Source: Acidobacteriota bacterium
GTDB taxonomy: Bacteria; Acidobacteriota; UBA6911; RPQK01; CBDAPI01
DNA length: 64,000 bases
Direction: 5' to 3'
Assembly (NCBI GenBank): GCA_965197285.1
Contig: OZ240092.1
Span: 3,947,337 to 4,011,336, forward strand
Of the stretch, positions 31,531-57,062 are shown one piece after another. Under the pieces are notes generated by a model. The model was not told the DNA's origin, did not search any database, and saw nothing but the letters and a program-made list of their open reading frames with translations. The position numbers were made by a program, and so were the translations under genes. The number at the start of each line of letters is the position of its first letter. Position 1 is the first letter of the stretch.

Positions 31531-31577
31531 AGAAGGCGGTGGGAATCAAGAACTGGAGATTGACCGCGTTGCCTAGC

Positions 31578-31593
31578 TTGCATTGCAATGCAA
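31578..31593. promoter_or_regulatory. perfect 16-bp palindrome TTGCATTGCAATGCAA overlapping the antitoxin start (candidate TA operator)
   Basis: exact dyad immediately at the vapB-like start codon; RHH antitoxins autoregulate through such operators. Confidence 0.45.
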
Positions 31594-31596
31594 TGC

Positions 31597-31848
31597 ATGG
31601 AAAGGCAGCTAACGGTTCGCGTGCCTAAAGAACTGGATGGAGCAATCGGCCTCGCCGCACGCACGCTTCAGCGCACTCGTTCAGAGATTGTGAAGGATGG
31701 CGCTGCGCCAGTTTCTGACTGTTTCCCTCAAGGGACGGCCAGCCGAAAGGGTTGCGGATTTGATCGGTGCCCTGGATTCGAGAGTCCCGGATCTGGCCGC
31801 CAGGCATCGTGAGTACATCCTGGAATCATTGAGAAATGGCCGGTGAGT
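31597..31848 (+). pseudogene. ribbon-helix-helix (CopG/VapB-like) antitoxin with a single-base frameshift near 31697-31700
   Basis: MERQLTVRVPKELDGAIGLAARTLQRTRSEIVKD then, in the +1 frame, ALRQFLTVSLKGRPAERVADLIGALDSRVPDLAARHREYILESLRNGR*, whose stop overlaps the vapC ATG (ATGGCCGGTGA). Confidence 0.55.
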
Positions 31849-32261
31849 TGCTGCTCGACACCGGAGCACTCGTCTCCCTTCTCGACCGAAGCCAGCCGGC
31901 TCATCCTGACGTATCCAGGTTCTTTGCAGCCTGGGATGGCAAGGCGGTCAGCACTGAAGCGGTTCTCACCGAAGCAACTCACCTTCTGGGGAGAGTCGCA
32001 GGAGGTATCGAAGCCTGCCTGAGTTTCTTTCTCCAGGGGGGAGCCGTCCTCGTGCCCCCATCCATTGTTTCCCTCAGACGAGCCCGCGAGCTGCTGATCC
32101 AGTACGCGGACCTTCCGATGGGCTATGCCGACGCAACGCTCGTGGTTCTCGCCGAAGAACTTGGAATCAGCCGGATTTTGACGACCGATAAGCGAGATTT
32201 CGGGATCTACCGCCGGGCAGGCCGGACACGGTGGCGACCAGTCCAATGCCGACGCCGATGA
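31836..32261 (+). CDS. vapC: PIN-domain toxin, VapC family
   Basis: LLDTGALVSLLD (Asp8), TEAVLTEATHLL, LTTDKRDFGIYR acidic residues in PIN order; start overlaps antitoxin stop. Confidence 0.75.
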   Translation: MAGELLLDTGALVSLLDRSQPAHPDVSRFFAAWDGKAVSTEAVLTEATHLLGRVAGGIEACLSFFLQGGAVLVPPSIVSLRRARELLIQYADLPMGYADATLVVLAEELGISRILTTDKRDFGIYRRAGRTRWRPVQCRRR

Positions 32262-32299
32262 AGATCAGCGACCAGGGCAGCCCGCTACAGGCGGCGGGC

Positions 32300-33096
32300 T
32301 CCCATGAGCGCGTCGTAGGGGCCGTTTTTGAGGGCTCAGGGGATCTTCGTCTCGCTCCTACGTTGGGGATGGAACGGCAACAGCTGGCGTTTCACAGCAA
32401 GGAGCCGGTGCTGCAAGCCGAGTTCGAACGTGCCTTCTTCATGTTCACCGACGATACCGCACAGGAGTTGGAGGGCCAGCTCAAGTTTGGTGAGGGCAAC
32501 TCAGCTCAACTGGAGAAGCACTACCGCGAGTGGATCAAGAAGTTGCAGCGTTACGGCCGGGACTGGACGCCTCGTTTGCTCAAGGGACTACTGGCGGAGG
32601 ATCCTACTCAGCATGCGTTTTTCGTAGCCGAAATTTGTACTCAAGGGAAAGTTTCGACCAGCTCAACTTTCACCCTCACCTGCACAGCCTGGCGGCGGAG
32701 GGAGGTTGGGGCCGAGACAACGGCACTTTTCAGTCCGTCAGTTTGCTGAACTCGGACATCCTCAGCGCTATTTTCCGCCAACAAGTGCTGGAAATGATGG
32801 TGCAAAAGCGCCGCCTCAGCCCCGCCTTCGCTCACAAGATCTCCCACTGGCGCCACAGCGGAGGCTTTCAAGTCTACTGCTCCCAGACCGTACAAGCCGA
32901 CGACCGACAGGCCCTCGAGCGGCTGGCTGCCCGCGCTACTGCGCAAGATCTACGAGTCGACCCCTTCACTTGTCCTCGTTGCTCGGGGCCGATGAAAATC
33001 GTGGCGGTCATCGAGCAACCGGAAACCATCCGCCAGATCCGGCTCTCCACCGATTCCATCTATTGGGACGACGTGCCCACCTGGCCGGATTCCTGA
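32300..33096 (+). pseudogene. IS91-family (Y2/HUH) transposase C-terminal remnant, internally frameshifted near 32640
   Basis: FHPHLHSLAAEGGWGRDNG...HWRHSGGFQV...ERLAARAT...CPRCSGPMKIVAVIEQPETIRQI resembles the conserved C-terminal half of IS91/ISCR transposases; N-terminal half absent; two overlapping frames. Confidence 0.5.
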
Positions 33097-33412
33097 GATC
33101 TACGCCCCCAGGAATCGACGGCCCTGCTTGGAGTGCGTCTTGTTTTGCCCTCGTTCCGTTGCCTTGTTGCTGCGCTCGTGTCCCTCCCCCACGCTTCCCT
33201 TGTTACATCCCCGAAACACCCCGCCTTCCGGCCCTCACGGCTCCTTGTAGGCCCATCTTGACCCGCATTTCAGGACTTGCTACCCTCAGCTTGAAAAGCA
33301 AATTACTATCTTCTTGCCTGTGGTGATTCTTATCTGGCTGGACCGGCCACGTTCGGGAGGGAGTTCTGGAGTTACCCGAATTGATGTTTCAGCTGTGGCA
33401 TAGGAGTTAGCT

Positions 33413-34207
33413 GTGAGTTCTGAGGAGCGGTTTGGTTATGAGTGGGACAAGTACTCAGCGATAGATCCCAACTATCAACTGCAGTTTCGTCGCTGGGTGG
33501 CTCCGTTGACACCTCCAGACTTTCAAGACAAAACGGTTTTGGATGCTGGCTGCGGCATGGGCAGGAACAGCTACTGGGCACTCAGGTGGGGGGCAGAAGC
33601 AGTTACTGCGTTTGACTTTGATGAGCGCTCAGTTAGAGCTGCAAGAAAGAACTTGCAAGAGTTTGGTGATCGAGCCCGAGTCATTTATAAGAGTATCTAT
33701 GATCCACAGGGGGAAGATGAGTTTGATATTGTATTTTCTATTGGGGTGATTCATCACCTGGAAGATCCTAAGGCGGCTCTCGCTAATCTTGTAAAGGCAA
33801 CAAAGCCCGGTGGGCGCTTGCTTATCTGGGTTTACAGCCACGAGGGCAACGAGTGGATTGTAAAAGTAGTTGATCCAGTTCGCAAAAACATCACTTCAAA
33901 GTTGCCAGTGGGACTGGTTCACTTTCTAAGCTACTTTGCCTCCATTCCGCTCTGGACTTTCGTAAAAACTTTTCGTGGTCCTGGGGCTTATCTTCGTCAG
34001 CTGGCAAAATTTAGATTTAGCCACGTACACAGCATTGTATTTGATCAGTTGATCCCTTCAGTTGCCAGTTATTGGACAAAGAACGAAGCACTTGGGCTTT
34101 TGAAGGATTTGGCACTTACAAGTATTGCAATCACTTGTCCTGAAAGTGGCACCGGCTGGACGGTCTTGGGGGTAAAAAAACAGGGCTGCTCGTGGGGGCA
34201 ACCCTGA
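33413..34207 (+). CDS. class I SAM-dependent methyltransferase (small-molecule type); markedly lower GC than surroundings
   Basis: VLDAGCGMGRNS motif I, DIVFSIGVIHHLEDP motif; local GC about 48% vs about 62%. Confidence 0.8.
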   Translation: MSSEERFGYEWDKYSAIDPNYQLQFRRWVAPLTPPDFQDKTVLDAGCGMGRNSYWALRWGAEAVTAFDFDERSVRAARKNLQEFGDRARVIYKSIYDPQGEDEFDIVFSIGVIHHLEDPKAALANLVKATKPGGRLLIWVYSHEGNEWIVKVVDPVRKNITSKLPVGLVHFLSYFASIPLWTFVKTFRGPGAYLRQLAKFRFSHVHSIVFDQLIPSVASYWTKNEALGLLKDLALTSIAITCPESGTGWTVLGVKKQGCSWGQP

Positions 34208-34375
34208 AGAGAGTCAGCTGAAAAGCTTATCCATTCTTACCCGCAATTCTCTACGAGGACGAAAAAGGTGTCAGAGTAGACTGTCCCCTTTTTGACCTGC
34301 TTGACGGCTCAGATCAACCACAGACCAAAGCCTCCGGCACGAGACCGGCCCTACAGTAATCTGGTAACCAGGCGG

Positions 34376-34630
34376 TCAGCCCCCGAAGCTGCGGAAGGAT
34401 GGCCGCCGGGATTCATATTCGCGGATGCGGTCCTCGACCTGCAGAGTGAGTCCCACGTCGTCGATACCCTGCAGAAGGCATTTCTTTCGAAAGCGATCGA
34501 TTTCAAAGCCGAAGCTGAGGGCGGGGCCGGCTTGAATCGTTTGTGACTCCAGGTCGACTCCTATTTCGTAGCCGCGTCTTGCCAGGGCGGCATCGCGGAG
34601 TTGAGTCACCCGGTTCTCTGGCAGGACGAT
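34376..34630 (-). pseudogene. leuD: 3' remnant of leuD (3-isopropylmalate dehydratase small subunit); only about 95 C-terminal codons remain
   Basis: ...IVLPENRVTQLRDAALARRGYEIGVDLESQTIQAGPALSFGFEIDRFRKKCLLQGIDDVGLTLQVEDRIREYE matches the LeuD C-terminus (FxIDxFRxxCLLxGLDDIGLTLQ); the N-terminal GCGSSREHAPWAL region is absent on either side of the IS. Confidence 0.6.
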
Positions 34631-36014
34631 GAGCTATGGTCGGAAGTTGTGTATGAGAGGCGGCGTATCCTGAATCCGTGACCTTCAATCATGGATTCAC
34701 CCGGAGACCGAGAAGGAGGATACGCCTTGAAGAAAGATACTGTAGTTTCCATCGACGAACCAACCACAACGAAGGATGCCTTGACGGAAGTTCTGCGTGA
34801 AGGAGCACAGAAGCTTCTGGCTGAGGCGGTTCAAGCCGAGCTGGAGGAGCTGCTGGAAGAGTACGAGGGTCAGCGTGATGGCCAGGGCCGCAAACGTCTG
34901 GTTCGCAACGGCTACCTGCCGAAGCGTGAGATCCAGACAGGGATTGGAGGAATCCCGGTTCGGATTCCGCGGGTTCGAGACCGTGGAACTGGTGAGGAGT
35001 CGGAGGAGATCATCCGCTTTCGTTCCAGCCTGGTGCCTCCCTATCTGAGACGTAGCAAGAGCGTGGAGGAACTGCTGCCCCTGCTTTACCTGAAGGGGAT
35101 CTCCACAGGAGACTTCTCGGATGCGTTGAGTGCACTGTTGGGGCCGGATGCACCGGGACTGTCGGCCAAGACGATCAGCCGGCTCAAAGGCAAGTGGGTC
35201 AAGGATTATGAGAAGTGGAGGCTGCGTGATCTCTCCAACAAGCGCTACGTTTACGTTTGGGCCGATGGCGTGTATGCCAACGTTCGCTTTGACGACGGCC
35301 GGCTTTGCCTTCTGGTGCTGATCGGAGCCCGTGCGGACGGCAAAAAGGAGCTGATTGCCGTGGAAGATGGCTACCGGGAAAGTGAGCAATCCTGGTGGGA
35401 GTTGCTGCGGAATCTGCGCTCCAGAGGCCTGCACAGGGGACCAAAACTGGCGATTGGCGACGGAGCGCTCGGATTCTGGAAAGCCCTGGCCAAGATCTAC
35501 GGCAATACGCGACAGCAACGCTGCTGGATGCACAAGACGGGCAATGTGCTCAACTGTCTGCCCAAGGCCGTTCAGCCAAAAGCAAAGACGGCGCTGCATC
35601 AGATCTGGATGGCTGAAACTCGAGAGAATGCCTATAGGGCCTTTGACGAGTTCATTGCCACCTATCAGCTGAAGTTTCCAAAGGCCACGTCCTGCCTGGC
35701 CAAGGACCGGACAGAGTTGCTGGCTTTCTACGATTTTCCAGCCGAGCACTGGCCACATCTGAGAACCACAAATCCGATCGAGTCGACCTTCGCAACCGTG
35801 AGACTGCGAACGGCCAAGACTCGAGGCTGTTTGTCCAGGCAAACCATGCTGACGATGGTCTTCAAACTATGCAGAAGCGCTGAGAAAAGATGGCGCCGGC
35901 TACAAGGTTGCCGGCGCCTCGGAGAGGTCATAGAAAACGTCACATTTGTAAACGGAATCCGTGAAAACGAGGTCGCCGCCTAATGGGTCCGTACCCAACT
36001 TTTGACAATAACTC
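34631..36014 (+). mobile_element. IS256-family insertion sequence (1384 bp) flanked by 9-bp direct repeat CAGGACGAT
   Basis: imperfect about 25-bp terminal IRs (GAGCTATGGTCGGAAGTTGTGTATG / rc GAGTTATTGTCAAAAGTTGGGTACG); TSD at 34622-34630 and 36015-36023. Confidence 0.8.
34691..35983 (+). CDS. IS256-family (mutator-type) transposase
   Basis: DDE transposase with the IS256 C-terminal signature (…YDFPAEHWPHLRTTNPIESTFATVRLRT…). Confidence 0.9.
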   Translation: MDSPGDREGGYALKKDTVVSIDEPTTTKDALTEVLREGAQKLLAEAVQAELEELLEEYEGQRDGQGRKRLVRNGYLPKREIQTGIGGIPVRIPRVRDRGTGEESEEIIRFRSSLVPPYLRRSKSVEELLPLLYLKGISTGDFSDALSALLGPDAPGLSAKTISRLKGKWVKDYEKWRLRDLSNKRYVYVWADGVYANVRFDDGRLCLLVLIGARADGKKELIAVEDGYRESEQSWWELLRNLRSRGLHRGPKLAIGDGALGFWKALAKIYGNTRQQRCWMHKTGNVLNCLPKAVQPKAKTALHQIWMAETRENAYRAFDEFIATYQLKFPKATSCLAKDRTELLAFYDFPAEHWPHLRTTNPIESTFATVRLRTAKTRGCLSRQTMLTMVFKLCRSAEKRWRRLQGCRRLGEVIENVTFVNGIRENEVAA

Positions 36015-36500
36015 CAGGACGATGGGCAGGAGGTCGTTATTGACACGAATGTCTTTCTCTCAGGCGTCTTCTTTGGCGGGCTACCCTGCCGGATCTTGAG
36101 GGCCTGGCGTGACAGCAAGCTCACCCTGGTTTATTCCTTGGAAATTCTGGGTGAGTATAGAAGAACGGGTGTCAGACTGGCACGTCGGTTCGAAGGGCTA
36201 GATCTCGATCCATTTCTCGCGCTGGTGGTAACTGAAGGCAGGCTTTTCGCCTCCCCCGCCCTGGATGAAGACGTGTGTGAGGACCCTGCAGACGACAAGT
36301 TCTTCGCATGCGCGGTCGCGAGCGGCTGCAGGCTGATTGTTAGTGGTGACAAGCATCTGCTCAAGGCAACGGGATACACAGCATTGAAGTGCTCCGGCCT
36401 CGAGCATTCGTGGAGAGTTATCTCTAGCCCGGATTATGCAAGAGATCTAAATTCAAGTGAGATTTGGGCCCAGGAAAAAGGCCGTAGCTCTCTGATATAA
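36015..36500 (+). pseudogene. PIN-family toxin (TIGR00305-like toxin-antitoxin component PIN family). Its 5' end is split off by the IS256 insertion and its 3' end runs into the IS1380 terminal repeat
   Basis: VVIDTNVFLSGVFFGG...DPADDKFFACAVASGCRLIVSGDKHLL matches the family; no start codon after the IS; a candidate original TTG start lies at 34601 on the other side of the IS. Confidence 0.6.
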
Positions 36501-38080
36501 AAGGGTTTACAAAAACAAAGACCCTAAACAGGAGCTACGGCAATGTCAAAAACAGTCTGCCAGAATACCCTGCCATTTCACAGCCACAGAAAGATCACGA
36601 CGCGTTTTGATGGAGGGAGCCTCACTTCCGACGCAGGATGGTTGTTGTTTGGATCCCTGGATCGTCAACATCGATTGTGCGAGGGCTTCAGTTCGTGTAT
36701 TGCGGAAAGTCGAGACCGACGCTACGTTCGTCATGACCTGTTGAAGTTGATCCGACAACGAGTCTTGCAGATCGTGGCCGGCTACGAAGACTGTAACGAC
36801 GCCGATACGCTGCGCTCGGATCCGATGCTCAAGACAGTCTGTGATCAGTTGCCAGAGAGCGATCCCGATTTGGCCACCCAGCCGACTTTCTCCCGCCTGG
36901 AGAACTCCGTCACCAAGAAGGATCTGATGCGTCTGAGCCGGTGGCTGCCAGGCCGTTATGTGCGCTCCCTGAAGAAGAGACGTCCCAGCAAGATCATCCT
37001 GGATCTGGACAGTACCGACGACCACACTCACGGCCAACAGGAGTTCTCCTTCTACCACGGGTATTACCGAAACCACATTCTGCATCCTTTGCTGATCTTC
37101 GATGCCGACACGGGAGACCTGGTCTGTGCCGTGTTGAGACCTGGCAACAAGGGGGCTGCCTCTCACATCGTGCCCATTCTGAAGCGAGTCGTGGAGGCCA
37201 TCCGACAAGCAGTGGGGACGGATGTCGAGATTGAGATTCGGGCCGACAGCGGCTTTGCCACGCCTCGGCTCTACGAGTTCTGTGAATGTGAAGAGAATAA
37301 ACTCCAGTATGTCATTGGGTTAAGTCGAAACCCTCGCCTGCAGCGAGTGGTCGAGCCCCTGCTGGATTCGACTCGGCTGAGGTTCCTTGAGCTGGAGGAA
37401 AAACAGCGTCAGTTTGACGAGTTTCTTTATCGAGCCCACAGCTGGGATCGATCCCGTCGCGTCATTGTCAAAGTGGAGGTCGATCAGCGTGGCATCAATC
37501 GTCGCTTTGTAGTTACCAACCGGGACGATCTCTGCTCCCAATCACTTTATGACCACTACACAAACCGAGGGCAGACCGAGAACTTCATCAAGGCCTTCAA
37601 GAATCATCTGAGCATGGACCGACTCAGCTGTCATCGATTCCTGGCCAATCAGTTTCGACTCCTCCTGCATGCACTGGCTTACCAGATGTCCGTGCGCCTG
37701 CGCGACTATCTTCACGGAACCCCCTGGCACAAGCTCGAAATCGAAACCTTACGTCGTCGGGTCCTCAAGATCGGGGCCCGGATCCGACAAACCACTCGAC
37801 GCATCTGGGTCCATCTTTCCTCAGCCTTCCCCGAACAACCCCTCTTCCACCTCGTCTTGAGTCGCCTGAACTCCAGTTAGCTTTTCCCAGCTCCCCCGAA
37901 AAACCGCTTCCGACACTCATCCAGGCCCAGATCTGTCTGAAATTCACTCCCCAAACCACTCAAACGCCTCGCCAACCCATATTCTTCGCAAATCCGCCTG
38001 TCACACCTGCCCGCTTCCGAGTTGGGCCACTTCTCAAGTCGTTTTTCAACACCGAACTACGGTTCTTGCATAATCCGGGC
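36460..38080 (+). mobile_element. IS1380-family insertion sequence, copy a (about 1.6 kb; ends approximate)
   Basis: transposase 36543-37880; candidate IRs GCCCAGGAAAAAGGCCGTAGCTC / rc GCCCGGATTATGCAAGAACCGTAGTTC. Confidence 0.6.
36543..37880 (+). CDS. IS1380-family DDE transposase
   Basis: FDGGSLTSDAGWLLF, LDLDSTDDHTHGQQE, YHGYY, ADSGF, YTNRGQTENFIKAFKN signatures. Confidence 0.9.
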   Translation: MSKTVCQNTLPFHSHRKITTRFDGGSLTSDAGWLLFGSLDRQHRLCEGFSSCIAESRDRRYVRHDLLKLIRQRVLQIVAGYEDCNDADTLRSDPMLKTVCDQLPESDPDLATQPTFSRLENSVTKKDLMRLSRWLPGRYVRSLKKRRPSKIILDLDSTDDHTHGQQEFSFYHGYYRNHILHPLLIFDADTGDLVCAVLRPGNKGAASHIVPILKRVVEAIRQAVGTDVEIEIRADSGFATPRLYEFCECEENKLQYVIGLSRNPRLQRVVEPLLDSTRLRFLELEEKQRQFDEFLYRAHSWDRSRRVIVKVEVDQRGINRRFVVTNRDDLCSQSLYDHYTNRGQTENFIKAFKNHLSMDRLSCHRFLANQFRLLLHALAYQMSVRLRDYLHGTPWHKLEIETLRRRVLKIGARIRQTTRRIWVHLSSAFPEQPLFHLVLSRLNSS

Positions 38081-38082
38081 TA

Positions 38083-38523
38083 GTGGCTGACCGCACCGAG
38101 TTCTGGTGGAACGAGCGCAAGCCCGACGAGCCGATGCTGTGGGAAAGCAAGATCGAACTCGGCGAGAAGTTTTTTAACGAGATTATCCGCCACCCAGTGC
38201 CGCTGGACATGAATACCCTCAACGCGCTCAAACGCTGCTCCCTGGGTCTGGATCTCTACCTCTGGCTCGCCTACCGCACCTTCGCTCTCCGCGCTCCGCA
38301 ACGGCTCACCTGGAAGCAGTTGTACCGTCAGTTCGGCCCGCATCCGGCCAAGGCGAACGATCCCGCCACCGTCAAGAACTTCCGCCGCAAAATCCTACGG
38401 GAGTTGAAGAAGATCAAGATCGCGTGGCCGGACCTAAACTACACTACGGCTCCGGGGGTCTTGATTCTCTTGCCCTCGACGCCCATCATCCTTCCGGGGC
38501 AGCAGCTTTCACTCCCGGAGTAG
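38083..38523 (+). pseudogene. C-terminal fragment of a plasmid replication initiator (RepA_C domain); N-terminal half missing
   Basis: VPLDMNTLNALKRCSLGLDLYLWLAYRTF...TWKQLYRQFG...NFRRKILRELKKIKIAWPDL matches the RepA_C family; begins (GTG) right at the IS1380 end, preceded by an in-frame TAG. Confidence 0.6.
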
Positions 38524-38643
38524 CCCTCAAGTCGCGCGCGTCCCGCACCAAGGATCGCCCCAGACGACCCCGCGCAGTCGCGGGTGGCCTCTTCTAGTGC
38601 CCGCGCCGCTGAAAGTTCGCGCCAGCCCTCCTGCGGCAATTTT

Positions 38644-38830
38644 TTCGAGAGGTTTATCCACAGGGCCACGTAATCCGGCTAGTTTTCCACGCCTAAAGTG
38701 GACCCCTGGAACAATTAACCTTTCGCCTAAAGTGGACCCTCTCAGCCAAAATCCCTTCGCCTAAAGTGGACCCCCATACAAGTAGTAAAGAACAAGTAGT
38801 AGGAGCGACTACTTCTGTGGATAAACAGGA
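38644..38830. promoter_or_regulatory. plasmid oriV-like segment: DnaA boxes flanking three iterons and an A/T-rich direct-repeat patch
   Basis: TTATCCACA at 38654-38662 and its complement TGTGGATAA at 38816-38824; 3x CGCCTAAAGTGGACCC at 38690, 38724, 38758 (34-bp period); CAAGTAGTAAAGAACAAGTAGTAGG. Confidence 0.5.
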
Positions 38831-39757
38831 AGGAAAAACCGGAGAAACCAGAACCACAGAAAAAGAGGGGCCGGGCCTCCTAAAGCCGTAGAAACATTTT
38901 ATTAGTTGAGTTGCGACCGATCCTGCATATCCATTTGCATTCCCAGATCTCGAAGAATCTCCATCTTCGCTTTTACCTCGGAAGGGCCGATCACCCGGAG
39001 TGTGTCAAAGAACTCGCGCAGGCTCTCCGGGCCCAACCCACAAACGTTCAGGGCCTCGCCGACCTGGCCGCAGTTGGGGCAGAGCGTCTGTCCCGTCCCG
39101 ATGTCTTCACCCTCGACGCGCCGCACAGCGTGATCGACTGGGTGGACGACTCGCCCACCCAGTCCACGCGCAAGTGGTGATAACGATCTTGGTTCTTCAT
39201 GGCCTCTACAGATTACCTCAGTTTAGCGTTCCGTTCTGGGACAATTTGCGCAAAGGAACGGTTACGCACCAATTTGACCCGGTAACGATAACCCCGTCGC
39301 TGTGGCGGTCCGGGACAGCTGTTACGGTGGCAGTCCGTCACACCTTCCCCTGCCGCTCAATGGCAGGTGAGCATAGTTTATGTGACTGGACGGCACTGTC
39401 AGAAGAAACGGGCTTGAGTTGGCGAGATGCGCCTTGTAGTGTCTTGGGATGAAGAACCCATTTCGCTATTTCAGGACTTCGCCCGAGATCATTCGCCTTG
39501 CCGTGATGATGTAGGTGCGCTTCCCACTGTCGCTACGCAATGATGTGCCGGTTTCCGTCCATCGGCGTTTCAAGACAGCGTGTAGCGCAACCAGCCGCCA
39601 GATGGTCGCTGAGTTACGACACGTGATCGAAGCCCGTATATTGGAGCTTGAAAGTGAGATCGGAAGCGTTGGGCAGGATGACCTCTGCTAATGCGCATGT
39701 TACCTTTTGCCAGCACTTTCTTGTTGAAATTGGCTTCTAGATGACGCCTGATAACAA

Positions 39758-43990: not shown

Positions 43991-44269
43991 ATGGCACGGA
44001 AGCGGTTTACGGCAGAACAAATCATCATGAAGCTGCGTGAGGCAGAGGCAGGTCTAGCCCAAGGACAGACGGTGGGCCAGATGTGCAAACAGATTGGGGT
44101 GACCGAGCAGACCTACTACCGGTGGCGCAAGGAGTACGGAGGGCTTCGACTGAATCAGGCCAAGCGGTTGAAGGTGTTGGAGAAGGAGAATGCCCGGTTG
44201 AAGAAGCTAGTGGCAGATCTGTCTTTGGACAAGCAGATCCTAAAGGAAGTTTCCTCGGGAAACTTCTAG
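43991..44269 (+). CDS. IS3-family transposase OrfA (HTH plus leucine zipper)
   Basis: MARKRFTAEQIIMKLREAE...[21 protein letters not shown]; RBS GGAAGGAGG upstream. Confidence 0.8.
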   Translation: MARKRFTAEQIIMKLREAEAGLAQGQTVGQMCKQIGVTEQTYYRWRKEYGGLRLNQAKRLKVLEKENARLKKLVADLSLDKQILKEVSSGNF

Positions 44270-45162: not shown

Positions 45163-45191
45163 AGAGTGGACTCGTTCCTGGGGGCAGGTCA

Positions 45192-45611: not shown

Positions 45612-45758
45612 CGTCGAAAGCGGCTACCGGTCCTGGAAGCACTCGAAGACGCAACTCTGTAACCCGGTTTGCATCCATACCGGCGTGATAAGATCTTTTC
45701 CTGTCCAACCCGGGTCGCTGGAAGGCGAGTGTGGCCCCCGGCACCCTGGAGCGCTGGC

Positions 45759-46958: not shown

Positions 46959-46966
46959 TTCGCCGC

Positions 46967-47749
46967 TCAGACCAGATCGACGATCAGCTTGCGCGTGCGG
47001 GAGTGAACCACTGCACCCAGGAGGCACGCACCGAGGGCCACTACGATCAGGTAAAGGAGTCCTGCCGGTGAAGGTGCGGCCTGCCCGAAAAAAACGTAGC
47101 GGTGCAGGGCGATCAGGTGGGTGAGGGGGTTCAGATCCAGGATCCAGGCCAGGCTTCCCGCTCGCGAATGCGGGTACACGATTGGTGTCGTCCAGAAAAG
47201 GATGAGGAAAACTGCGCCCAGGGCCTGAGCCACGTCCCGCACCAGAACAGTCGCACAGGCCAGAATCAGCGAAAGGCCGAATGCCAGAGTCAGTTGCAAC
47301 AAGCCGGCAAGAGGCCAGATGCACAGTGTCACCAGGCTGAGTTCCTGCTTGAACGTCAGGACCGCTACGAATAGAAGAGTTCCCACACACTGGTGAACAA
47401 AAGCCGATGTAATGATTCCCAGGGGCAGAGCAGGAAGAGGAAAACGAGCCCTGGTGATCAGCTGCCCGTGATCGAGAAAGGAGCGGGCCGATCGATTGAG
47501 GCTTTCCTGGAAGGCCAGCCAGGGAAGTAAAGCCGCAAAAAGAAAAAGGGCGAATCGCCCGCTGGACGCGCTCTCATCAAAGCTCTGCCCCAGGAAGCCG
47601 GAAAAGACCAGTGTGTAGACGGTCAACTGCAGCAGCGGATTGAGGATCGACCAGGCTCCTCCCAGCAGCGAGCCCCGGTAGCGACTCTTCACGTCCCGCC
47701 GCACCAGCTCTCCTACCAGGTACCTGTTTCTCCAGAGATCCGTCACCAT
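46967..47749 (-). CDS. ABC-2 type polysaccharide/O-antigen export permease (Wzm/KpsM-like); no cognate ATPase gene adjacent
   Basis: 6-TM ABC-2 architecture; start taken at MVTDLWRNRYLVGELVRRDVKSRYRGS, typical of Wzm. Confidence 0.7.
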   Translation of the reverse strand: MVTDLWRNRYLVGELVRRDVKSRYRGSLLGGAWSILNPLLQLTVYTLVFSGFLGQSFDESASSGRFALFLFAALLPWLAFQESLNRSARSFLDHGQLITRARFPLPALPLGIITSAFVHQCVGTLLFVAVLTFKQELSLVTLCIWPLAGLLQLTLAFGLSLILACATVLVRDVAQALGAVFLILFWTTPIVYPHSRAGSLAWILDLNPLTHLIALHRYVFFGQAAPSPAGLLYLIVVALGACLLGAVVHSRTRKLIVDLV

Positions 47750-47795
47750 TTGTTGCAGCCAGCCTCGCGCAGCCGCGAGGAGTATACTATAGGCC

Positions 47796-49613
47796 TTGGC
47801 TGCGCAGGAGCCCCAGTTCCGAATAGCTCGATCTCTCGTCCTCTTGATTTTCGGGCTTCTGCCCCTGGTGGTTTCCGTCGCGGGCCTGGACAAATTCCGC
47901 ACGCCGAAAGACATCGTGATCACCTCGGCGATTCCTCTCCTGGCAGTCATCTGTCTGGCCGGTTCCTCATTCAGAATCCGTTTGGGCGTCTTCGAGTGTA
48001 CGGTTCTTGGGGCCGCGGTCTACGTTCTGATTCACGGATTTTATCAGGGTGGAATGGAAGCTGCGGTCACGCTCTGCCTGTTCGCGCTGTGGCTGCTGCT
48101 CCTGTCCCGGCTCCTGTCCTGGCGGTTTCAGAAGCGTGTCTGGCTGGTGGCGGCGCTTTCTCTCAGTCTCAACTGCGTGGCCAATGTTGTGCAGTATTTT
48201 GGGATGTTTCCGTGGATGCTGCGAGATGGCGGAAAGGCCATGTCGGGCCGGGTGACGCCGGCAGGCCTGCTCGGGGAAGTCGGCACCGGAGCGATCCTTT
48301 TCGGCATGATCGTCCTGATGTCCATTTACTTTCTCCTCTTCGAGCGGAATCGGTCGCTTCGAGTCGGCTGGCTGTTGGTCTCCCTGTTCAACCTGGTGGG
48401 CCTGCTGCTCACGCGTACGATGACGGCAAGTCTGGCGCTGACAGGATGCCTCCTTCTGTGGCTGGGCTTTCACCACTGGTGGGTCGTCAAACGCCACCCT
48501 CAATCGCGTCGCCGGCTGGCAGCTCTATGGGCTGTTATCGTGGTGGGAGGGGGGTTGGCTGCCGCCTTTGCAGTTCAGTCGGAACTCTGGGACCGCGTCT
48601 CGCGAGCCGCCCGCCAGGCGATGAGCGGAAGCCTGGAAGTGGCCACGGCGGGGCGCTACTCCGTGTATCTGATCACGTGGGACATGATCAAGGACCGGCC
48701 GCTGGCGGGTCGCGGACTCACGTCCTTCGCACCAGCCTTTTACCACCAGCGGACCGAGACCGGGTACGGCCGCGAAGTAGCGCTTCTCCCCCAGGCGGGC
48801 GCCTTTCGAGAGGCCCACAACGAGTACCTGCAAACCTGGGCCGAACTCGGGTTGCCGGGCTTGCTCTTACTCACCGGGCTGCTGGGTTTCTCTCTATTCT
48901 CTGCACTTCGCCTGTCTTTCAGGGAAACCGATCCGCAACGATGCTATTGGGCCGGAATCCTTGCCCTGGCCCTGATCTATTTTCTCATCGCTTCGCTGAC
49001 CATGTTTCCTCTTCATGTCAGCTCCACCGCGATCTTTGTCTGTTTGATCGTGGCGTCCATTCGACATCTCGATCGCTACGGGTTCGAGGAAAACGGTACC
49101 CCTTCAACCGAAGGAGGGGGTAGGAGACGAAAGCTGCTGGCGGCCGTCGCGCTGATCCTGTCCCTGCCCCTGCTTTACGGGCAGTACCAGAAATGGCAGG
49201 CGAACAATTCACTTGGCATGGCGGCGTTCTTGCTGGAGGGGGCCAGCCGGCAGAATCTCAACACCCGGCAACTCCGAACCGTAGCGACGCGGGCGCTGGC
49301 TCTGCTGGATCGTCCCGAGTCGAGTCGCGCCTGGTTTCCGGAGCTTCATAGCCTGCGAGGTTCGGCCGCCATGTTTCTGGGCCGCTACCGGATGGCAGAG
49401 GCATCCTACCGGAAGGCTATAGTCAGGATTCCAAGTCCTGAAACGATGACCAACCTGGCGGCGGCTCTGATTGCCCAGAACGAATGCGAGAAGGCCGAGC
49501 CTTTTCTCCAGTCGGCCCTCCGCTACAATCCGGGGTACCGCGAGGCCGGCCAGGCCCGCCAATACTGTCGCCGCCAGAAACGGCGAAGCACGGGGCCGAA
49601 AAAGGAGCCATGA
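47796..49613 (+). CDS. O-antigen ligase/polymerase-family membrane protein (Wzy_C) with C-terminal TPR domain
   Basis: multi-TM with RGLTSFAPAFYHQ...AHNEYLQTWAELGLPG Wzy_C loop; C-terminal TPR-like helices. Confidence 0.7.
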   Translation: MAAQEPQFRIARSLVLLIFGLLPLVVSVAGLDKFRTPKDIVITSAIPLLAVICLAGSSFRIRLGVFECTVLGAAVYVLIHGFYQGGMEAAVTLCLFALWLLLLSRLLSWRFQKRVWLVAALSLSLNCVANVVQYFGMFPWMLRDGGKAMSGRVTPAGLLGEVGTGAILFGMIVLMSIYFLLFERNRSLRVGWLLVSLFNLVGLLLTRTMTASLALTGCLLLWLGFHHWWVVKRHPQSRRRLAALWAVIVVGGGLAAAFAVQSELWDRVSRAARQAMSGSLEVATAGRYSVYLITWDMIKDRPLAGRGLTSFAPAFYHQRTETGYGREVALLPQAGAFREAHNEYLQTWAELGLPGLLLLTGLLGFSLFSALRLSFRETDPQRCYWAGILALALIYFLIASLTMFPLHVSSTAIFVCLIVASIRHLDRYGFEENGTPSTEGGGRRRKLLAAVALILSLPLLYGQYQKWQANNSLGMAAFLLEGASRQNLNTRQLRTVATRALALLDRPESSRAWFPELHSLRGSAAMFLGRYRMAEASYRKAIVRIPSPETMTNLAAALIAQNECEKAEPFLQSALRYNPGYREAGQARQYCRRQKRRSTGPKKEP

Positions 49614-49643
49614 GGACTGTCTAGCACCAGGCCGGAAGAAAGT

Positions 49644-50612
49644 AGGATTGGAATCGACGCCCGCTCCCTGCGTTGGGGACCGGCAGGTGTTGCTACTTAC
49701 GTCTCCAATCTCCTGCAATTCCTTCCCTGGCTCGACGCTCTGGAATCCTCCAGGCCGGTGAACAACCTGCTCTTCAACTGCGTGCGGGTGCCTCTGGCCG
49801 CGTGGCGCCGCCGATGGCAGGTGTGCCACGCTCCCTCCTACACCTGTCCACTCGTCAGTCCTTGTCCGATCGTCATGACCGTTCACGACATCTCCTATCT
49901 GGCCCACCCCGAGTGGTATCCATACAAGCGAGGGGTCGCGCGACAGGCCTACTACCGGGCCTGTCTGCGGCGGGCGGATCGAATCGTGGTTCCTTCACGG
50001 TTTTCGGAACAGGAGATTGTGGACCGTTTTCCGGGCCTGGAGGGACGGATCCGGATCGTTCCGATGGGGGTGTCCGAGTTCTTCTCGCCCGCCCCCGACC
50101 TGGCCCGTGAAGTCTGTCGAGAGCTGAATCTTCCCTCCCGGTTCATTCTGCACGTGGGGGATCTGCATGTGCGTCGCAATCTGTGGCTGCTTCAGCGGGC
50201 GGCCGAGCAGGTGGGTTTGCCACTCGTCCTGGTTGGAAGACCCCTGGAAGAGGGTTCGATTCCCGACGGAGCTCTGCTCTTCACTGACATTTCAATGGAC
50301 AGGCTCAAAGGGATCTACTCTGCCGCAGCCGTTTTTGCCTACCCGTCCCTGTACGAGGGATTCGGTCTGCCGGTCCTGGAGGCGATGGCCTGTGGGGTTC
50401 CGGTTGTGGCCTCCGACCGGGGCTCCCTTCCCGAGGTTTGCGGCCAGGCCGCCGAACTGGTGGAGCCCGACCAGGACGGCCTGGTTGCCGGCATAGAAAG
50501 AGCGCTGGGAAATGGTGAAGTCCTCCGCAAGAGAGGTCTGGTGCGAGCCTCGGGTTTTTCCTGGGAGCAAACGGCGGCTGCGACGCTGGAAGTGTACCGT
50601 GAACTCATGTGA
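49644..50612 (+). CDS. GT4-family glycosyltransferase; the N-terminal Rossmann domain is in frame from 49614 but lacks a canonical start codon
   Basis: RIGIDARSLRWGPAGVATYVSNLL typical GT4 N-terminus upstream of the listed ATG 49758; C-terminal EGFGLPVLEAMACGVPVV motif. Confidence 0.7.
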   Translation, partial: RIGIDARSLRWGPAGVATYVSNLLQFLPWLDALESSRPVNNLLFNCVRVPLAAWRRRWQVCHAPSYTCPLVSPCPIVMTVHDISYLAHPEWYPYKRGVARQAYYRACLRRADRIVVPSRFSEQEIVDRFPGLEGRIRIVPMGVSEFFSPAPDLAREVCRELNLPSRFILHVGDLHVRRNLWLLQRAAEQVGLPLVLVGRPLEEGSIPDGALLFTDISMDRLKGIYSAAAVFAYPSLYEGFGLPVLEAMACGVPVVASDRGSLPEVCGQAAELVEPDQDGLVAGIERALGNGEVLRKRGLVRASGFSWEQTAAATLEVYRELM

Positions 50613-50819
50613 GCCCAACCGGCTGGCACAACAGGCCCCTGCGAGACGGACCGCTATCAGCGCTTCGAGGCCACACGGCGCGTGACCTTGCCCCCTAAAA
50701 CGGGTCCAAGTTGAATGTTAGGATTTTCGGTTTTAGGAAGGAGGCAAGGATGGCACGGAAGCGGTTTACGGCAGAACAAATCATCATGAAGCTGCGTGAG
50801 GCAGAGGCAGGTCTAGCCC

Positions 50820-52552
50820 GCATAGATCACCGATTTGGAAATGAAGGTGATTTTGGCAGGCCGGAACGGTTTTCTGAGAGTTTCGCTATCGATCCGGTCC
50901 AGGTCGAGTGATGCGGTGGTGTGGAGGGTCGTGAATGGAGCGTTTTTCGGGCTCGGAAGAGGGTGACGGAACGGATTCAGGCAGAGCTCGGCCTGAGCGA
51001 TGGAACGATTTCGTTTTTGGGGCGTTTGATCGGGACAGACCTCAGCAGCGCAGAGGAATGGCCTGGAGGTTTCGAACGACGGCAGCGAAGACCTCGCTGT
51101 AGGGATAGGCTTCCGACATGGAGATCCAGACGTGGCGGACCGTGAGGCGGACCTGGGCGCCGATCTTGAGGAGCTTCAAGCGAATCGTCTGACACTGAGC
51201 GCGAGCCAGGGGGGTCTGCTTCAGTCCGAGACGACGCAAGGCGTGCATGAGCATGTAGGCGGCGGAGGACAGATACAGCCGGAGTTGATTGGCGCGCATC
51301 GTTGCCGCGCTGGTCCGGTCGGCGAACAGATCCAACTGCTGTTCTTTTATGCGGTTCTCCATGTCGCCCCGCGCACAGTAGAAGTCTTCGTAGAGCGCGC
51401 GGGCCCCCAGGCGTTCCGGCGACAGGGAGGTGACGATGAATCGGGGATTGGCGCCTTTCTCCAGGAACTCGGCCTTGCCGACGACGCGTCGCTCCGAGGT
51501 CCAACTGTGGCGAGTCCGGTAGCGGAAATCCTGGAACACCCGCGCCGGTCGCCCGGTGGCGTTGAACTCGGCTTCGGCCTGAGTCATCGCTTCGGCGATC
51601 TCTGACTTGAGCCGATCATTGTTGGCCAACCCCATCACGTAATCCACGTGATGGTCTTCACACCAGCGGAGCAAGTCATCCCGGCAAAAGCCAGAGTCGG
51701 CCCGGATGACGATCGAGACCTCCGGCCAGCTCTGCCGAATCCGGCCGACGATCCGTTCCAGTTCCTCCGCCGATCCCGCGGCCCCATCGATATTGGAACA
51801 CCGCAACCGGGCGCACAGCAGATGCTCCCCCGAGAAGATGTACAGCGGGAGATAACAGTAGTGGCGGTAGTAACCGTGAAAGAACCGGCCTTCCTGCTGG
51901 CCATGGATCGGGTCGTCGGTCGCATCCAGATCCAGCACGATCTCCTCGGGCGCCGATTCGTGGGACTCCACGAAGGCATCCACCATCCAGCCGTCGATCC
52001 GGTCCGGGTCCATCGCGATCTTCTTGTACCGCTCCTGCTCATCGACCTCGGCGCCGGTCAACTCCAACCGGTTCAGCGTACACCTGCCCGCCAGCGCCTT
52101 CCCCCGATCTGAGGCCTGCCGCCGCCGCTCCCCCAACGGATCGGCCTTATTCACCGCCACCGCCAGCATCGGATCGGTGCGCAACTGATCATGATCGTTC
52201 AGATCCTCGTACCCCAGACAGAGTCCGTAGATGCGCTGCCCCAACAACTCCTCGACCGTGTGTTCGATCAACCGCGGATCCCGGTGATCCCTGAAGCACG
52301 CGGTCAGTCCGGCAACGAGACCCGTCCGCTGCTCGACCTCGCGTAACAGCAGCACCCCTGCATCGGAGGTGATCTTCCCGCCGTCGAACCGCGCCTTCAC
52401 TTTGCGTTGAAATAGTCCGTGAAATTCGAACCTGGCTTGTTTACACTCTGTTCTCATAAGGGCCGCCTCCGTTTGGCTTTGAAGTCTTTCATTCAAAACG
52501 CTTTATACCAAACAGGGCGGCCTTTTGAGGTCCTATCGGTGAGAAATGGCGG
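50820..52552 (-). mobile_element. IS1380-family insertion sequence, copy b (a different member from copy a), nested inside IS3 copy 2
   Basis: IRs GCATAGATCACCGAT / rc CCGCCATTTCTCACCGAT; target CTAGCCC present on both sides (TSD 4-7 bp, exact ends ambiguous). Confidence 0.65.
51042..52496 (-). CDS. IS1380-family DDE transposase
   Basis: FDGGKITSDAGVLLL, LDLDATDDPIHGQQE, FHGYY, ADSGF, YCARGDMENRIKE signatures. Confidence 0.9.
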   Translation of the reverse strand: MNERLQSQTEAALMRTECKQARFEFHGLFQRKVKARFDGGKITSDAGVLLLREVEQRTGLVAGLTACFRDHRDPRLIEHTVEELLGQRIYGLCLGYEDLNDHDQLRTDPMLAVAVNKADPLGERRRQASDRGKALAGRCTLNRLELTGAEVDEQERYKKIAMDPDRIDGWMVDAFVESHESAPEEIVLDLDATDDPIHGQQEGRFFHGYYRHYCYLPLYIFSGEHLLCARLRCSNIDGAAGSAEELERIVGRIRQSWPEVSIVIRADSGFCRDDLLRWCEDHHVDYVMGLANNDRLKSEIAEAMTQAEAEFNATGRPARVFQDFRYRTRHSWTSERRVVGKAEFLEKGANPRFIVTSLSPERLGARALYEDFYCARGDMENRIKEQQLDLFADRTSAATMRANQLRLYLSSAAYMLMHALRRLGLKQTPLARAQCQTIRLKLLKIGAQVRLTVRHVWISMSEAYPYSEVFAAVVRNLQAIPLRC

Positions 52553-53661
52553 CTAGCCCAAGGACAGACGGTGGGCCAGGTGTGCAAACAGATTGGGGTG
52601 ACCGAGCAGACCTACTACCGGTGGCGCAAGGAGTACGGAGGGCTTCGACTGAATCAGGCCAAGCGGTTGAAGGTGTTGGAGAAGGAGAATGCCCGGTTGA
52701 AGAAGCTAGTGGCAGATCTGTCTTTGGACAAGCAGATCCTAAAGGAAGTTTCCTCGGGAAACTTCTAGGCCCGGCGAAGAGGAGACGCGCAGTGGTGTGG
52801 GTGAGGGAGAGATTGGGAGCAGAGCGCGTCTCCGAACGTCGGGCCTGCCAAGTGCTGGGACAGGCTCGATCGACCCAGCGAAGGGAAAGGCATATCCCCG
52901 ATGATGAGGCTCGATTGGTGGCTGAGATGGTGGAGTTGGCCACGCACTACGGGCGATACGGCTACCGACGGATCACGGCCATGCTTCGTTGGGAAGGGTG
53001 GAAAGTGAATCACAAGCGGGTGGAGAGGTTGTGGAGACAGGAGGGGCTGAAAGTCCCGTCCAGACAGCCGAAACGAAGGAGACTGTGGCTTCATGATGGA
53101 TCCTGCGTTCGGTTACGAGCGGCTCACAAGGATCACGTCTGGAGCTATGACTTCGTGCATGAGCGAACCCATGACGGAAGGGCCTTTCGATTATTAACCC
53201 TACTGGATGAATACACCCGGGAGTGTCTGGCCATTGAGGTTCAACGACAGATGAATCACCAGGACGTGTTGGATCGATTGGCGGAGTTGTTCGTGGATCG
53301 GGGAGTGCCTGAATACATTCGGTCCGATAACGGGTCGGAGTTTACGGCTCAGGCGGTTCGGGACTGGCTGAAGGCTGTTGGGGTGAGGACCTTATACATC
53401 GAGCCCGGCAGCCCCTGGGAGAATGGATATGTGGAGAGCTTCAACGGAAAACTGCGGGATGAACTGCTGAACGTAGAAGTCTTCGACACGTTGTGGGAAG
53501 CGAAGGTGTTGGCCGAGAGATGGCGCAGGGAGTACAACCAGCGACGGCCTCACAGCGCCTTGGCCTATCGGCCGCCGGCGCCGGAGGCCAGATTACCCAG
53601 GTCCCAGGCCCAGAGTTCTATACCATGGAGTGGACTTCAAATGGTCCCAGGTCTAACTTAG
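52546..53661 (+). CDS. IS3-family transposase OrfB (copy 2)
   Basis: near-identical to 44083-45162. Confidence 0.8.
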
Positions 53662-53687
53662 AGAGTGGACTCGTTCCTGGGGGCAGG

Positions 53688-54557
53688 TCAGCGACTGCCT
53701 CCGAGCTTCTGTCGAAACCGCCGGGCCGCATGCGCCAGGTCGATTCCGGCCAGCACCAGGCGGGTCTGGAGCGGGTGGGCCCTGGGAGCGTAGTGTTTGG
53801 CATGGAAGATCTTCATGGCGTCAAAAAAATGCCTGGTGTTCACCGCCGTGTCCTGGTCTGAGCTGCGACTCTTCAGGTGGGTAACTGTGGCCCCGGCATA
53901 GTACTCCACCAGCCAGCCCGCCTGGAGGGCCCGATAGCAGAAATCCAGGTCCTCGCCATAGAGGAAAAACCCTTCATCCAGGAGCCCGATCTTCTCGGTC
54001 AGTTCTCGGCGAAACATCAGAAACGAACCGGAGACCGCTTCCACCGGCTGCGTCTTGTTTTCGTCCAGAGAGGTCAGGTTGTAGGCTCCGAACTCCCGAC
54101 TGCGGGGAAACAGTCGGCTCAGCCCGAGAAAGCGATAGATCGAATTTCGGACCGTGGGTATGGAGCGCTGGCAGGCCAGCTGGAGACTCCCGTCGGGATT
54201 CAGGATCCGGCATCCCACTACACCCGTCTGCGGGCGGCTCCGAAGGTAGTCCAGGGTCTTCTCGATGGCGTTGTCGTGAATGATAACGTCCGGATTCAGG
54301 AGCAGGAAAAAGGGGGCAGTAGCGTGACGGATTCCACGATTGCAGGCTTTGGCAAACCCCTCGTTGTGCCGATTGAGGAGAAGCACGGGTGAAGAACAGC
54401 GGAGTTCGTTTTCCAGCCGGGACTGGTCAGAGGAAGCGTTGTCCACGACAACCACTTGGATCTGGTCTTCTTGATTCGCCCTTCGTATGCCGGACAGACA
54501 CTGAAGAAGGTCGGCAGTCGAGTTGTAGTTCACGATGATGACGGATAGTTGCATCAC
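53688..54557 (-). CDS. GT2-family glycosyltransferase; its stop codon is supplied by the IS3 terminal TCA (last about 6 native codons replaced)
   Basis: VIIVNYNSTADLLQCL...VVDNASSD GT2 N-terminus; reconstructing the pre-insertion sequence gives ...LGGSRRVASKR*. Confidence 0.8.
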   Translation of the reverse strand: MMQLSVIIVNYNSTADLLQCLSGIRRANQEDQIQVVVVDNASSDQSRLENELRCSSPVLLLNRHNEGFAKACNRGIRHATAPFFLLLNPDVIIHDNAIEKTLDYLRSRPQTGVVGCRILNPDGSLQLACQRSIPTVRNSIYRFLGLSRLFPRSREFGAYNLTSLDENKTQPVEAVSGSFLMFRRELTEKIGLLDEGFFLYGEDLDFCYRALQAGWLVEYYAGATVTHLKSRSSDQDTAVNTRHFFDAMKIFHAKHYAPRAHPLQTRLVLAGIDLAHAARRFRQKLGGSR

Positions 54558-57047: not shown

Positions 57048-57062
57048 CGTTCCACCTTCCAA

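Follow-up and report, generated by a model that had tools for sequence, protein, structure and literature searches.

A patch, probably built stepwise, of insertion sequences and gene fragments beside a truncated polysaccharide locus in an Acidobacteriota genome

Introduction

Plasticity zones rich in insertion sequences (IS), and IS-mediated erosion of genomes, are known from Shigella, Bordetella pertussis (IS481), Burkholderia mallei and Orientia. Here we analyze a patch with several of the same features in an Acidobacteriota genome. The stretch studied, referred to as the window, comprises 64,000 nucleotides of contig OZ240092.1 (assembly GCA_965197285.1, positions 3,947,337 to 4,011,336), and all coordinates below refer to it. 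A preliminary description of the window had proposed an IS-dense accessory island at 31560–53700, lying between a housekeeping block and an exopolysaccharide locus. Its inventory stands: six IS copies or remnants from four families (one IS256, two IS1380, two IS3 and an IS91 remnant) lie where it had placed them or close by. Its outline has to be redrawn. The region comprises a compositionally foreign mosaic at about 30.15–43.9 kb and, to the right of it at 45.2–53.7 kb, part of a native polysaccharide locus. We consider it most probable (roughly 0.75) that this is a patch of chromosomal junk built step by step, not a single inserted island.

A contig from a European Nucleotide Archive (ENA) metagenome (ERZ25072076 ctg244364; L011/L001) matches positions 20184–64000 colinearly at 99.9–100% identity; one further contig was reported only as a similar place. 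The metagenome-assembled genomes (MAGs) related to the window by sequence carry an Acidobacteriota label.

Results

To define the foreign segment by composition, tetranucleotide distances were computed against a reference made only of positions 1–30152 and 53691–64000, so that the 45–54 kb segment was not part of it. The distance is 0.018–0.030 at about 28.5–45 kb and 0.012–0.017 elsewhere, including 45–54 kb, which is indistinguishable from the flanks. Thus only the left part of the proposed island is atypical, and within this 30–45 kb zone the GC content (GC) spans 0.48–0.72. We place the compositionally foreign mosaic at about 30.15–43.9 kb.

The segment at 45.2–53.7 kb, by contrast, is native by gene order. 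Three loci from relatives, L015 and L016 (one species) and L017, carry the same series of genes: a lineage-specific gene for a 399-residue protein (unk399), an ABC-2 permease, a Wzy/TPR protein, a GT4 glycosyltransferase, two GT2 glycosyltransferases, a priming transferase, an epimerase and further genes beyond. Nucleotide identity across the polysaccharide genes is 78–87% (78–79% for the 45759–50612 segment), and none of the three IS of this part of the window is present. Homology to all three loci runs from 45194 to 50605–50617 and resumes at 53692, to end at 59835. The preliminary description had named relatives with the same gene order and no IS as the finding that would tell against its island. 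Such relatives exist for 45.2–53.7 kb; on the left side the relatives found are non-syntenic.

In the window, the colinear stretch at 45759–50612 begins with unk399 (+) and continues with the ABC-2 permease (46970–47749, −), the Wzy_C/TPR gene (47796–49613, +) and the GT4 gene (49614–50612, +), the last three recognized by Pfam. The following GT2 gene (53691–54557, −; Pfam Glycos_transf_2) now takes its stop codon from the end of an IS and has lost its native C-terminal tail. The GT4 gene has lost its canonical start codon: the frame is open and homologous to the relatives from 49623, their GTG start, which overlaps the Wzy stop, has been replaced (region 49611–49760), and the first canonical start lies 48 codons in. 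The gene may be a pseudogene or may use a non-canonical start. The ABC-2 permease has no ATPase partner nearby, and the same is true in the relatives.

The IS at the end of GT2 is a nest of two elements. IS3-B (50683–53690, +) consists of two parts, 50683–50819 and 52553–53690, which are 100% and 99.74% identical to the other IS3 copy, IS3-A (blastn). It is split at IS3 position 137, within orfA, by IS1380-B (~50818–52552, −). The two halves (137 and 1138 nt) overlap by the 7 nt CTAGCCC. Because this heptamer is shared by the halves and occurs once in the uninterrupted IS3-A, IS1380-B must have inserted into the IS3-B orfA with duplication of CTAG(C). The preliminary description had rightly listed two IS3-family copies without mentioning this split.

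IS3-B itself is flanked by a 3-bp duplication, GCG, and sits in the last codons of GT2. Its empty site is seen in L015, L016 and L017, where homology resumes one base past the element, and in a fourth relative, L012, which is homologous from 53692 rightwards and continues for 26 nt across the site to the GT2 stop codon. Removing the IS in silico lengthens the GT2 open reading frame (ORF) from 289 to 313 codons; the L012 orthologue has 295. The whole nest thus went cleanly into the 3' end of GT2 as IS3-B, with IS1380-B inside it.

IS3-A (43924–45191, +) is 1268 bp long, with ends TGACCT...AGGTCA and intact reading frames: orfA (HTH_Tnp_1, 43952–44269) overlaps the rve-type orfB in the −1 frame, with a GGGAAAC slippery heptamer before the orfA stop, and the NF033516 score is 246 bits against a cut-off of 160. 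The two frames are those of the IS3 family, for which TG...CA ends and a target duplication of 3–5 bp are also typical; the ends agree, and IS3-B has the duplication GCG. However, IS3-B is disrupted, and IS3-A stands between cat and atg and so lacks a duplication, which suggests a product of recombination or deletion.

The surroundings of IS3-A differ sharply on its two sides. GC falls from 0.727 on the left to 0.567 on the right. On the left, the gene for an fn3/cadherin-like surface protein, hereafter the adhesin (39758–43923, +), is 3'-truncated, with its last repeat unit cut at 43923. On the right, 45192–45611 (+) is what is left of a native gene for a PKD/Big_9 surface protein, its final ~140 codons, recognized by homology to the L015 and L017 proteins: it is 53–55% identical to residues 840–987 of the 987-residue L015 protein and to residues 495–642 of the 642-residue L017 protein. 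In the relatives, this gene of 642–987 codons stands directly upstream of unk399. All but the last ~140 codons are gone from the window, and so are a BNR_2 gene, a gene for a 587–653-residue protein, a 714-residue methyltransferase and several GT2 genes that the relatives carry upstream. Homology to the three relatives starts at 45194/45195, three bases past the end of the element. We also considered the open frame leading from IS3-A into 45192–45611 as a continuation of the adhesin through a 2-bp duplication; it was rejected on the change in GC (0.73 to 0.57) and on the PKD/Big_9 homology.

Because there is no target duplication, GC drops, both neighboring genes are truncated and the upstream genes of the locus are absent, IS3-A is a rearrangement breakpoint, which may have arisen by deletion, by inversion or by recombination of one IS3 copy with another. 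The foreign DNA therefore does not simply split two intact blocks, as had been proposed, since at this breakpoint the polysaccharide locus has lost its upstream half. The two IS3 copies are directly oriented and share 1.1 kb at 99.7% identity, so homologous recombination between them could delete the intervening 5.5 kb.

The polysaccharide locus continues to the right. The last ~10 kb of the window carry a priming polyprenyl glycosylphosphotransferase (TIGR03025), an epimerase, GT2 and GT4 enzymes and a TPR protein, and a UDP-glucose dehydrogenase gene follows just downstream of the window in the ENA contig. With its priming transferase, glycosyltransferases, Wzy_C/TPR protein and epimerase, and with a gene order conserved in four relatives, the locus resembles the Wzx/Wzy-type and PEP-CTERM-type loci of Acidobacteriota. 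It differs from those exopolysaccharide loci in being 5'-truncated by IS3-A and in having a GT2 without its tail, a GT4 without its start and an ABC-2 permease without an ATPase. The locus may be partly non-functional.

At the other end, the mosaic probably begins at ~30152 and not at 31560 as first described, because the gene for an SDF-type dicarboxylate/amino acid:cation symporter (30184–31530, +; Pfam SDF, E = 1.6e-114) has an atypical GC (0.530 versus 0.597 for the left flank) and recurs in four further Acidobacteriota species, where its surroundings are rich in IS and unrelated. These homologues (at ~9970–11345 of loci L003, L004, L005 and L007) are 95–97% identical in nucleotide sequence. 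The homology, window 30149–31533, covers only the gene, ~35 nt upstream and a few nucleotides downstream, and begins at the stop codon of the neighboring UPF0182 gene; the five contexts have nothing else in common. In L003 the gene lies between two transposase genes, in L005 near copies of IS1380-A, and in L004 and L007 near a miniature inverted-repeat transposable element (MITE; see below). Neither boundary of the homology shows an IS end, a repeat or anything like attC. With moderate confidence, we take the SDF gene to be the leftmost cargo of the accessory zone. A further SDF copy, in a Pirellulaceae MAG, has 82% amino-acid identity.

The UPF0182 gene gives no outside reference for this edge. 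Its orthologues at seven loci of relatives (L008–L010 and L018–L021; 86–93% amino-acid identity) have no neighbor in common with the window on either side. Neither they nor the SDF relatives share the genes that adjoin the edge in the window, so no empty site defines the left boundary, and because the relatives are non-syntenic on this side the presence or absence of the 30–44 kb segment cannot be scored. The neighbors of UPF0182 in these relatives are often IS, a group II intron, or integrase or MobC genes. The L008 locus has about seven IS in 22.7 kb. L020 and L021 have an IS1380 directly downstream of UPF0182 into which an IS256 has inserted; L019, with an identical UPF0182 protein, lacks this nest, a polymorphism within one species.

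Between SDF and IS3-A, the mosaic holds the mixture that the preliminary description had recognized: a VapBC module, a low-GC methyltransferase, the 3' end of leuD, a RepA C-terminus and a GC-rich, frame-broken adhesin are all present. The VapBC-type toxin-antitoxin pair (31588–32261, +) consists of an RHH antitoxin (31588–31812; RHH_1, E = 0.0025, a weak match) and a PIN toxin (31836–32261; E = 5.5e-10). It is followed by a remnant of an IS91-family (Y2/HUH) transposase (32590–33078, +), which matches Pfam Y2_Tnp over profile positions 12–111 of 183 (E = 4.3e-6). In tblastn it aligns to residues 156–261 and then directly to residues 361–407 of a 455-residue Trichlorobacter lovleyi transposase. 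It thus lacks about 155 residues at the N-terminus and, in frame, about 100 more from the interior; reference residues 262–360 are where we would expect the catalytic tyrosines to lie. A full IS91-family transposase has an N-terminal zinc-binding domain and the catalytic tyrosine region; lacking its N-terminus and this segment, the sequence is a remnant and not an element. Next come a gene for an S-adenosylmethionine-dependent methyltransferase (33413–34207, +; Methyltransf_11 and Methyltransf_25, E ~1e-18; GC 0.482) and the last ~70 of the ~200 codons of leuD (34376–34609, −; NF002458 positions 127–197 of 202, E = 9e-17, with a Pfam LeuD match).

An IS256-family element (34631–36014, +) follows. 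It encodes a Mutator-type DDE transposase (NF033543, 305 bits against a cut-off of 150; Transposase_mut PF00872, E = 5.8e-63), its inverted repeats are imperfect (~26 nt, with ~18 of the first 25 positions matching), and the 9-bp direct repeat CAGGACGAT stands on both sides of it, at 34622–34630 and 36015–36023. These features, including a duplication of 8–9 bp, are those of the family, and the element is a simple insertion with a 9-bp target duplication, as the preliminary description had it. To its right lies a PIN-family toxin gene (36015–36427, +; TIGR00305 positions 2–114 of 115, E = 3.6e-14). This gene, earlier called a split toxin, is cut at both ends: IS256 has removed at most its start or first few codons along with the upstream region, and IS1380-A interrupts its 3' tail, the ORF running on to 36500 inside that element. 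The PIN domain itself, however, is complete. No antitoxin gene adjoins this solitary PIN gene.

IS1380-A (36428–38079, +) is 1652 bp long and has a 16-nt perfect inverted repeat, CCCGGATTATGCAAGA, with CTAG on both sides (a 20-nt perfect repeat if CTAG is included). At its right end it abuts a truncated plasmid repA gene. What remains (38083–38523, +; RepA_C profile positions 100–179 of 181) is the C-terminal 44% of the gene, and its truncation falls precisely where IS1380-A stops on the right. The fragment is 41% identical to residues 167–291 of the 295-residue RepA of a Rhodothermus marinus plasmid. About 170 nt downstream of the repA stop codon, at 38690–38774, three 17-nt direct repeats CGCCTAAAGTGGACCCC follow each other with a 34-bp spacing, as found in a repeat search and by tandem repeat finder (period 34, score 103). 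By their arrangement they look like iterons, the remnant of a plasmid oriV.

Iteron plasmids with a RepA_C protein (PF04796), among them Rhodothermus marinus plasmids and those of PromA type, are the closest match to this segment: the C-terminal half of RepA is 35–41% identical, and three evenly spaced 17-nt repeats lie downstream of it. Such a replicon has a full-length RepA with adjacent iterons; in the window the N-terminal 166 residues of RepA are missing, so that it cannot be a working replicon. A megablast search of 30150–45200 against 72,556 plasmids gave only two matches of 85–90 nt, both of them within IS256, so the mosaic does not correspond to a known plasmid. One relative, L018, carries a shorter repA C-terminal remnant at 20668–21144, with 66% amino-acid identity to the fragment in the window. 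After this remnant comes a 50-nt stretch that is 90% identical to window 38778–38826, directly upstream of NikA/MobC genes. We found this tail through a tblastx comparison of all loci with the window, which was mostly compositional noise and served only as a lead to it. Together these remnants suggest that a plasmid or integrative and conjugative element (ICE) family circulates and decays in the lineage.

Further right, 39392–39545 (+) may be the left end of an IS6-family element. It matches positions 1–59 of 202 of NF033587 weakly (E = 0.0058) and consists of a motif resembling the left inverted repeat, GGCACTGTCAGAA, and the first ~32 transposase codons with an in-frame stop. IS6 elements have inverted repeats of 14–20 nt of the GGCACTG type. 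Although the window has a single occurrence of the motif here, 38% of shuffled sequences match it as well. This weak candidate would be a seventh IS remnant and a fifth family. A small cysteine-containing ORF at 38900–39200 on the minus strand (...CPNCGQVGEALNVCG...) appears frameshifted and has no family match. The adhesin gene completes the mosaic. It has two fn3 matches and weak Cadherin_3 and Cadherin_4 matches, a GC of 0.63–0.72 and internal repeats of ~700 nt, and it is broken into at least three frames. Runs of C5, C7 and G9 stand at the breaks, in a contig of 11x coverage (per the contig name); the first break is a +2 insertion.

The IS1380 family, which includes ISEcp1 and IS1380, makes 4–5 bp target duplications and is distantly related to piggyBac. 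Both IS1380 elements of the window conform to it, with a single DDE ORF (445–484 residues) whose DDE_Tnp_1_4-type transposase scores above the NF033539 cut-off of 180 bits, with short inverted repeats beginning with CC, and with 4–5 bp duplications. They are clearly different elements, as first described: IS1380-A (373 bits; PF13701, E = 1e-143) and IS1380-B (~1.73 kb; 392 bits; PF13701, E = 1e-157) have transposases that are 37% identical. They differ from this description in that both sit at CTAG, a strict palindromic tetranucleotide that recalls the TTAA of piggyBac. Copies of IS1380-A that are 95.5–98.5% identical occur in L005 (three copies), L007, L010, L019, L020 and L021. Nearly every full-length copy (nine insertions at seven loci) is flanked by CTAG or CTAA, which suggests a strict palindromic 4-bp target, CTAR, for IS1380-A. 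A literature search for a CTAG target in IS1380 returned nothing relevant. Because IS1380-A targets CTAR, its matching CTAG flanks are also compatible with recombination between copies. IS1380-B has copies in L020 and L021 that are 98% identical. The window and the ENA contig differ by 15 substitutions at 45.6–64 kb, and 13 of them fall inside IS1380-B (51459–52344), which suggests that divergent copies were mixed in the consensus during assembly or polishing.

A MITE of ~160 bp is also associated with such tetranucleotides. Copies lie at 6477–6642 of the window (166 bp), at 8567–8733 of L004, 9528–9696 of L007 and 7635–7808 of L017. They are 90–94% identical across species, have 22-nt terminal inverted repeats TGCACTGTCCGGAAAGTTCGCG and fold into a long hairpin (−68 kcal/mol), and every copy is flanked by CTAG or TTAG. 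The ends of the MITE match no IS in the window.

The crowding of IS in the window is real: the chance that six to seven uniformly placed points fall within 21 kb of 64 kb is 0.006–0.017. It is also ordinary for the lineage. Nine independent, unrelated loci of relatives hold 20 IS in 198 kb, one per 9.9 kb, compared with one per 9–13 kb in the window. The lineage has very active IS and further clustered patches at other loci, and the patch in the window is typical of it. The earlier view of a region where mobile DNA has accumulated and decayed is borne out by this mosaic of IS, gene fragments and compositionally foreign genes; a hotspot specific to this locus is not demonstrated.

The left ~30 kb carry chromosomal functions: an M1 peptidase, an acyl-AMP ligase/acyltransferase, GDPD, Tag, lactate permease, TrkA/TrkH, a cystathionine-synthase-like enzyme, IspD/IspF, SuhB, a B12 radical-SAM protein and UPF0182. 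The flanks had been called contiguous and essentially intact, which needs two qualifications: the left one holds the MITE at 6477–6642, and the right-hand locus is 5'-truncated at IS3-A. The 64-kb window contains neither a tRNA nor a tmRNA gene. The only Rfam match in it at gathering thresholds is the Acido-Lenti-1 small RNA (RF01687) at 10110–10157, outside the mosaic; it scores 39 bits against a gathering score of 37 and lies within or adjoining a small ORF (9978–10373) upstream of the lactate permease gene. Three GC-rich perfect hairpins of ~71–78 nt, at 2095–2165, 3262–3332 and 57110–57187, have stems starting with (A)AGAGTGGG, loops with TTTAAAT and folding energies of −62 to −68 kcal/mol. 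Two copies, in inverted orientation and 97% identical, flank a TPR gene, and the third follows the priming transferase gene. They look like a repeat family resembling repetitive extragenic palindromic (REP) elements or terminators.

Discussion

The families, ends and target duplications of the elements, the nesting, the empty sites in relatives and the change of composition at IS3-A are seen directly; the order of events, the plasmid origin of the mosaic and the kind of rearrangement at IS3-A are inferred. The order that we propose for this patch is as follows. Foreign DNA, largely derived from plasmids or mobile elements, would have been acquired at ~30.15–43.9 kb. It would have brought the SDF gene, VapBC, the IS91 remnant, the methyltransferase, the leuD piece, the PIN gene, half of repA with the iteron-like repeats, the possible IS6 end and the adhesin. 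IS active in the lineage would then have inserted, IS256 with its 9-bp duplication and IS1380-A at CTAG. The 5' half of repA was probably lost through an IS-associated deletion or recombination, because the gene is cut exactly at the end of IS1380-A. At IS3-A, a deletion, an inversion or recombination between copies would have joined the adhesin, cut at its 3' end, to the final ~140 codons of the PKD/Big_9 gene, and the upstream half of the polysaccharide locus would have disappeared from this site. IS3-B would have inserted cleanly into the 3' end of GT2 in what was left of the locus, and IS1380-B later into the orfA of IS3-B, inactivating it.

Several points weigh against this account. At the left boundary, no IS, repeat or duplication explains how foreign DNA came to be joined to UPF0182. 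Without UPF0182 neighbors common to the relatives, the housekeeping block is not demonstrably ancestral. No conspecific genome lacking the mosaic turned up, and the accessory status of the 30–44 kb segment is argued from its composition and content only. The frame breaks of the adhesin lie at C/G homopolymers in an 11x, probably long-read, assembly, and they may be sequencing errors and not decay. Finally, a 3-bp duplication such as GCG has a 1-in-64 chance of coincidence, although the empty-site alignment supports the IS3-B insertion independently.

A wider interpretation, which we offer tentatively, is that the patch is one visible symptom of a lineage-wide IS expansion that scrambles gene order, within which SDF may be mobile as a gene-sized unit. 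Behind it stand the presence of IS1380-A at 95.5–98.5% identity in at least seven sampled loci (the window included), a density of about one IS per 10 kb, and the fact that the neighborhoods of UPF0182 and SDF differ in every relative sampled; the extent of such an expansion was sampled in only ~200 kb of the relatives' loci.

A classical genomic island or ICE that entered between the housekeeping block and the polysaccharide locus, where the preliminary description had placed its island, in one integration by a site-specific recombinase and was later peppered by IS, seems improbable to us. The atypical composition at 30–45 kb and the plasmid-type genes (the RepA fragment with its iteron-like repeats and the toxin-antitoxin modules) would fit it, as would the related repA tail beside MobC/NikA and a phage integrase in L018. 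An island of that kind should show an integrase, a tRNA or att site and flanking direct repeats. The 64 kb, however, contain no tRNA gene, the scanned ORFs encode neither an integrase nor a recombinase domain, and no direct repeats flank the zone. The right edge is a duplication-less IS3 with a truncated native gene on one side and a foreign gene on the other, and a GC of 0.48–0.72 within the zone argues for several sources.

It is more improbable still that the adhesin/IS3-A/PKD junction, and possibly others, are assembly chimeras at repeated IS, with the frameshifts of the adhesin as homopolymer errors. Such an explanation would account for the missing target duplication at IS3-A and for frame breaks at C5, C7 and G9 runs, and it agrees with the low coverage and with the concentration of inter-assembly differences inside IS1380-B, as expected if repeat copies were mixed. 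Against this, the ENA contig is colinear over 20–64 kb, including (by coordinate arithmetic) the IS3-A junction, elements of 1.3–3 kb are normally spanned by long reads, and the first frame break, the +2 insertion, is present in both assemblies. Least probable of all, and in effect refuted, is a composite transposon formed by the directly oriented, 99.7% identical IS3 copies around 45192–50682 that brought in the ABC-2, Wzy and GT4 genes: these genes are colinear with the downstream locus in the IS-free L015, L016 and L017, so no empty site lacks them, the sequences outside the two copies are cat and gcg where a common duplication would be expected, and IS3-B has a duplication of its own, has flanks that are contiguous in the relatives and is inactivated by IS1380-B.

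The reading of a patch built step by step bears first on annotation. The border between island and locus is redrawn, and the foreign mosaic begins one gene earlier than proposed. The polysaccharide cluster is truncated and probably impaired, having lost its upstream half, the tail of GT2 and the start codon of GT4. The IS-free colinear relatives provide clean empty sites, and they document recent activity of IS3, IS1380 and IS256 in uncultured Acidobacteriota. A CTAR target is suggested for one IS1380 member and for a MITE. Specialists in mobile DNA will find little to surprise them here; the scale of IS-driven rearrangement in the lineage is the only part that may be worth study.

The overall structure has known counterparts in IS-rich plasticity patches where insertions are nested and IS without target duplications mark breakpoints. 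What sets it apart from the IS-expanded bacteria named above is its host, an uncultured environmental Acidobacteriota lineage represented only by MAGs and with no known link to host restriction. What it shares with them is IS families clustered with gene fragments, insertions nested within one another, IS without target duplications at breakpoints, loss of synteny, and near-identical IS at many loci.

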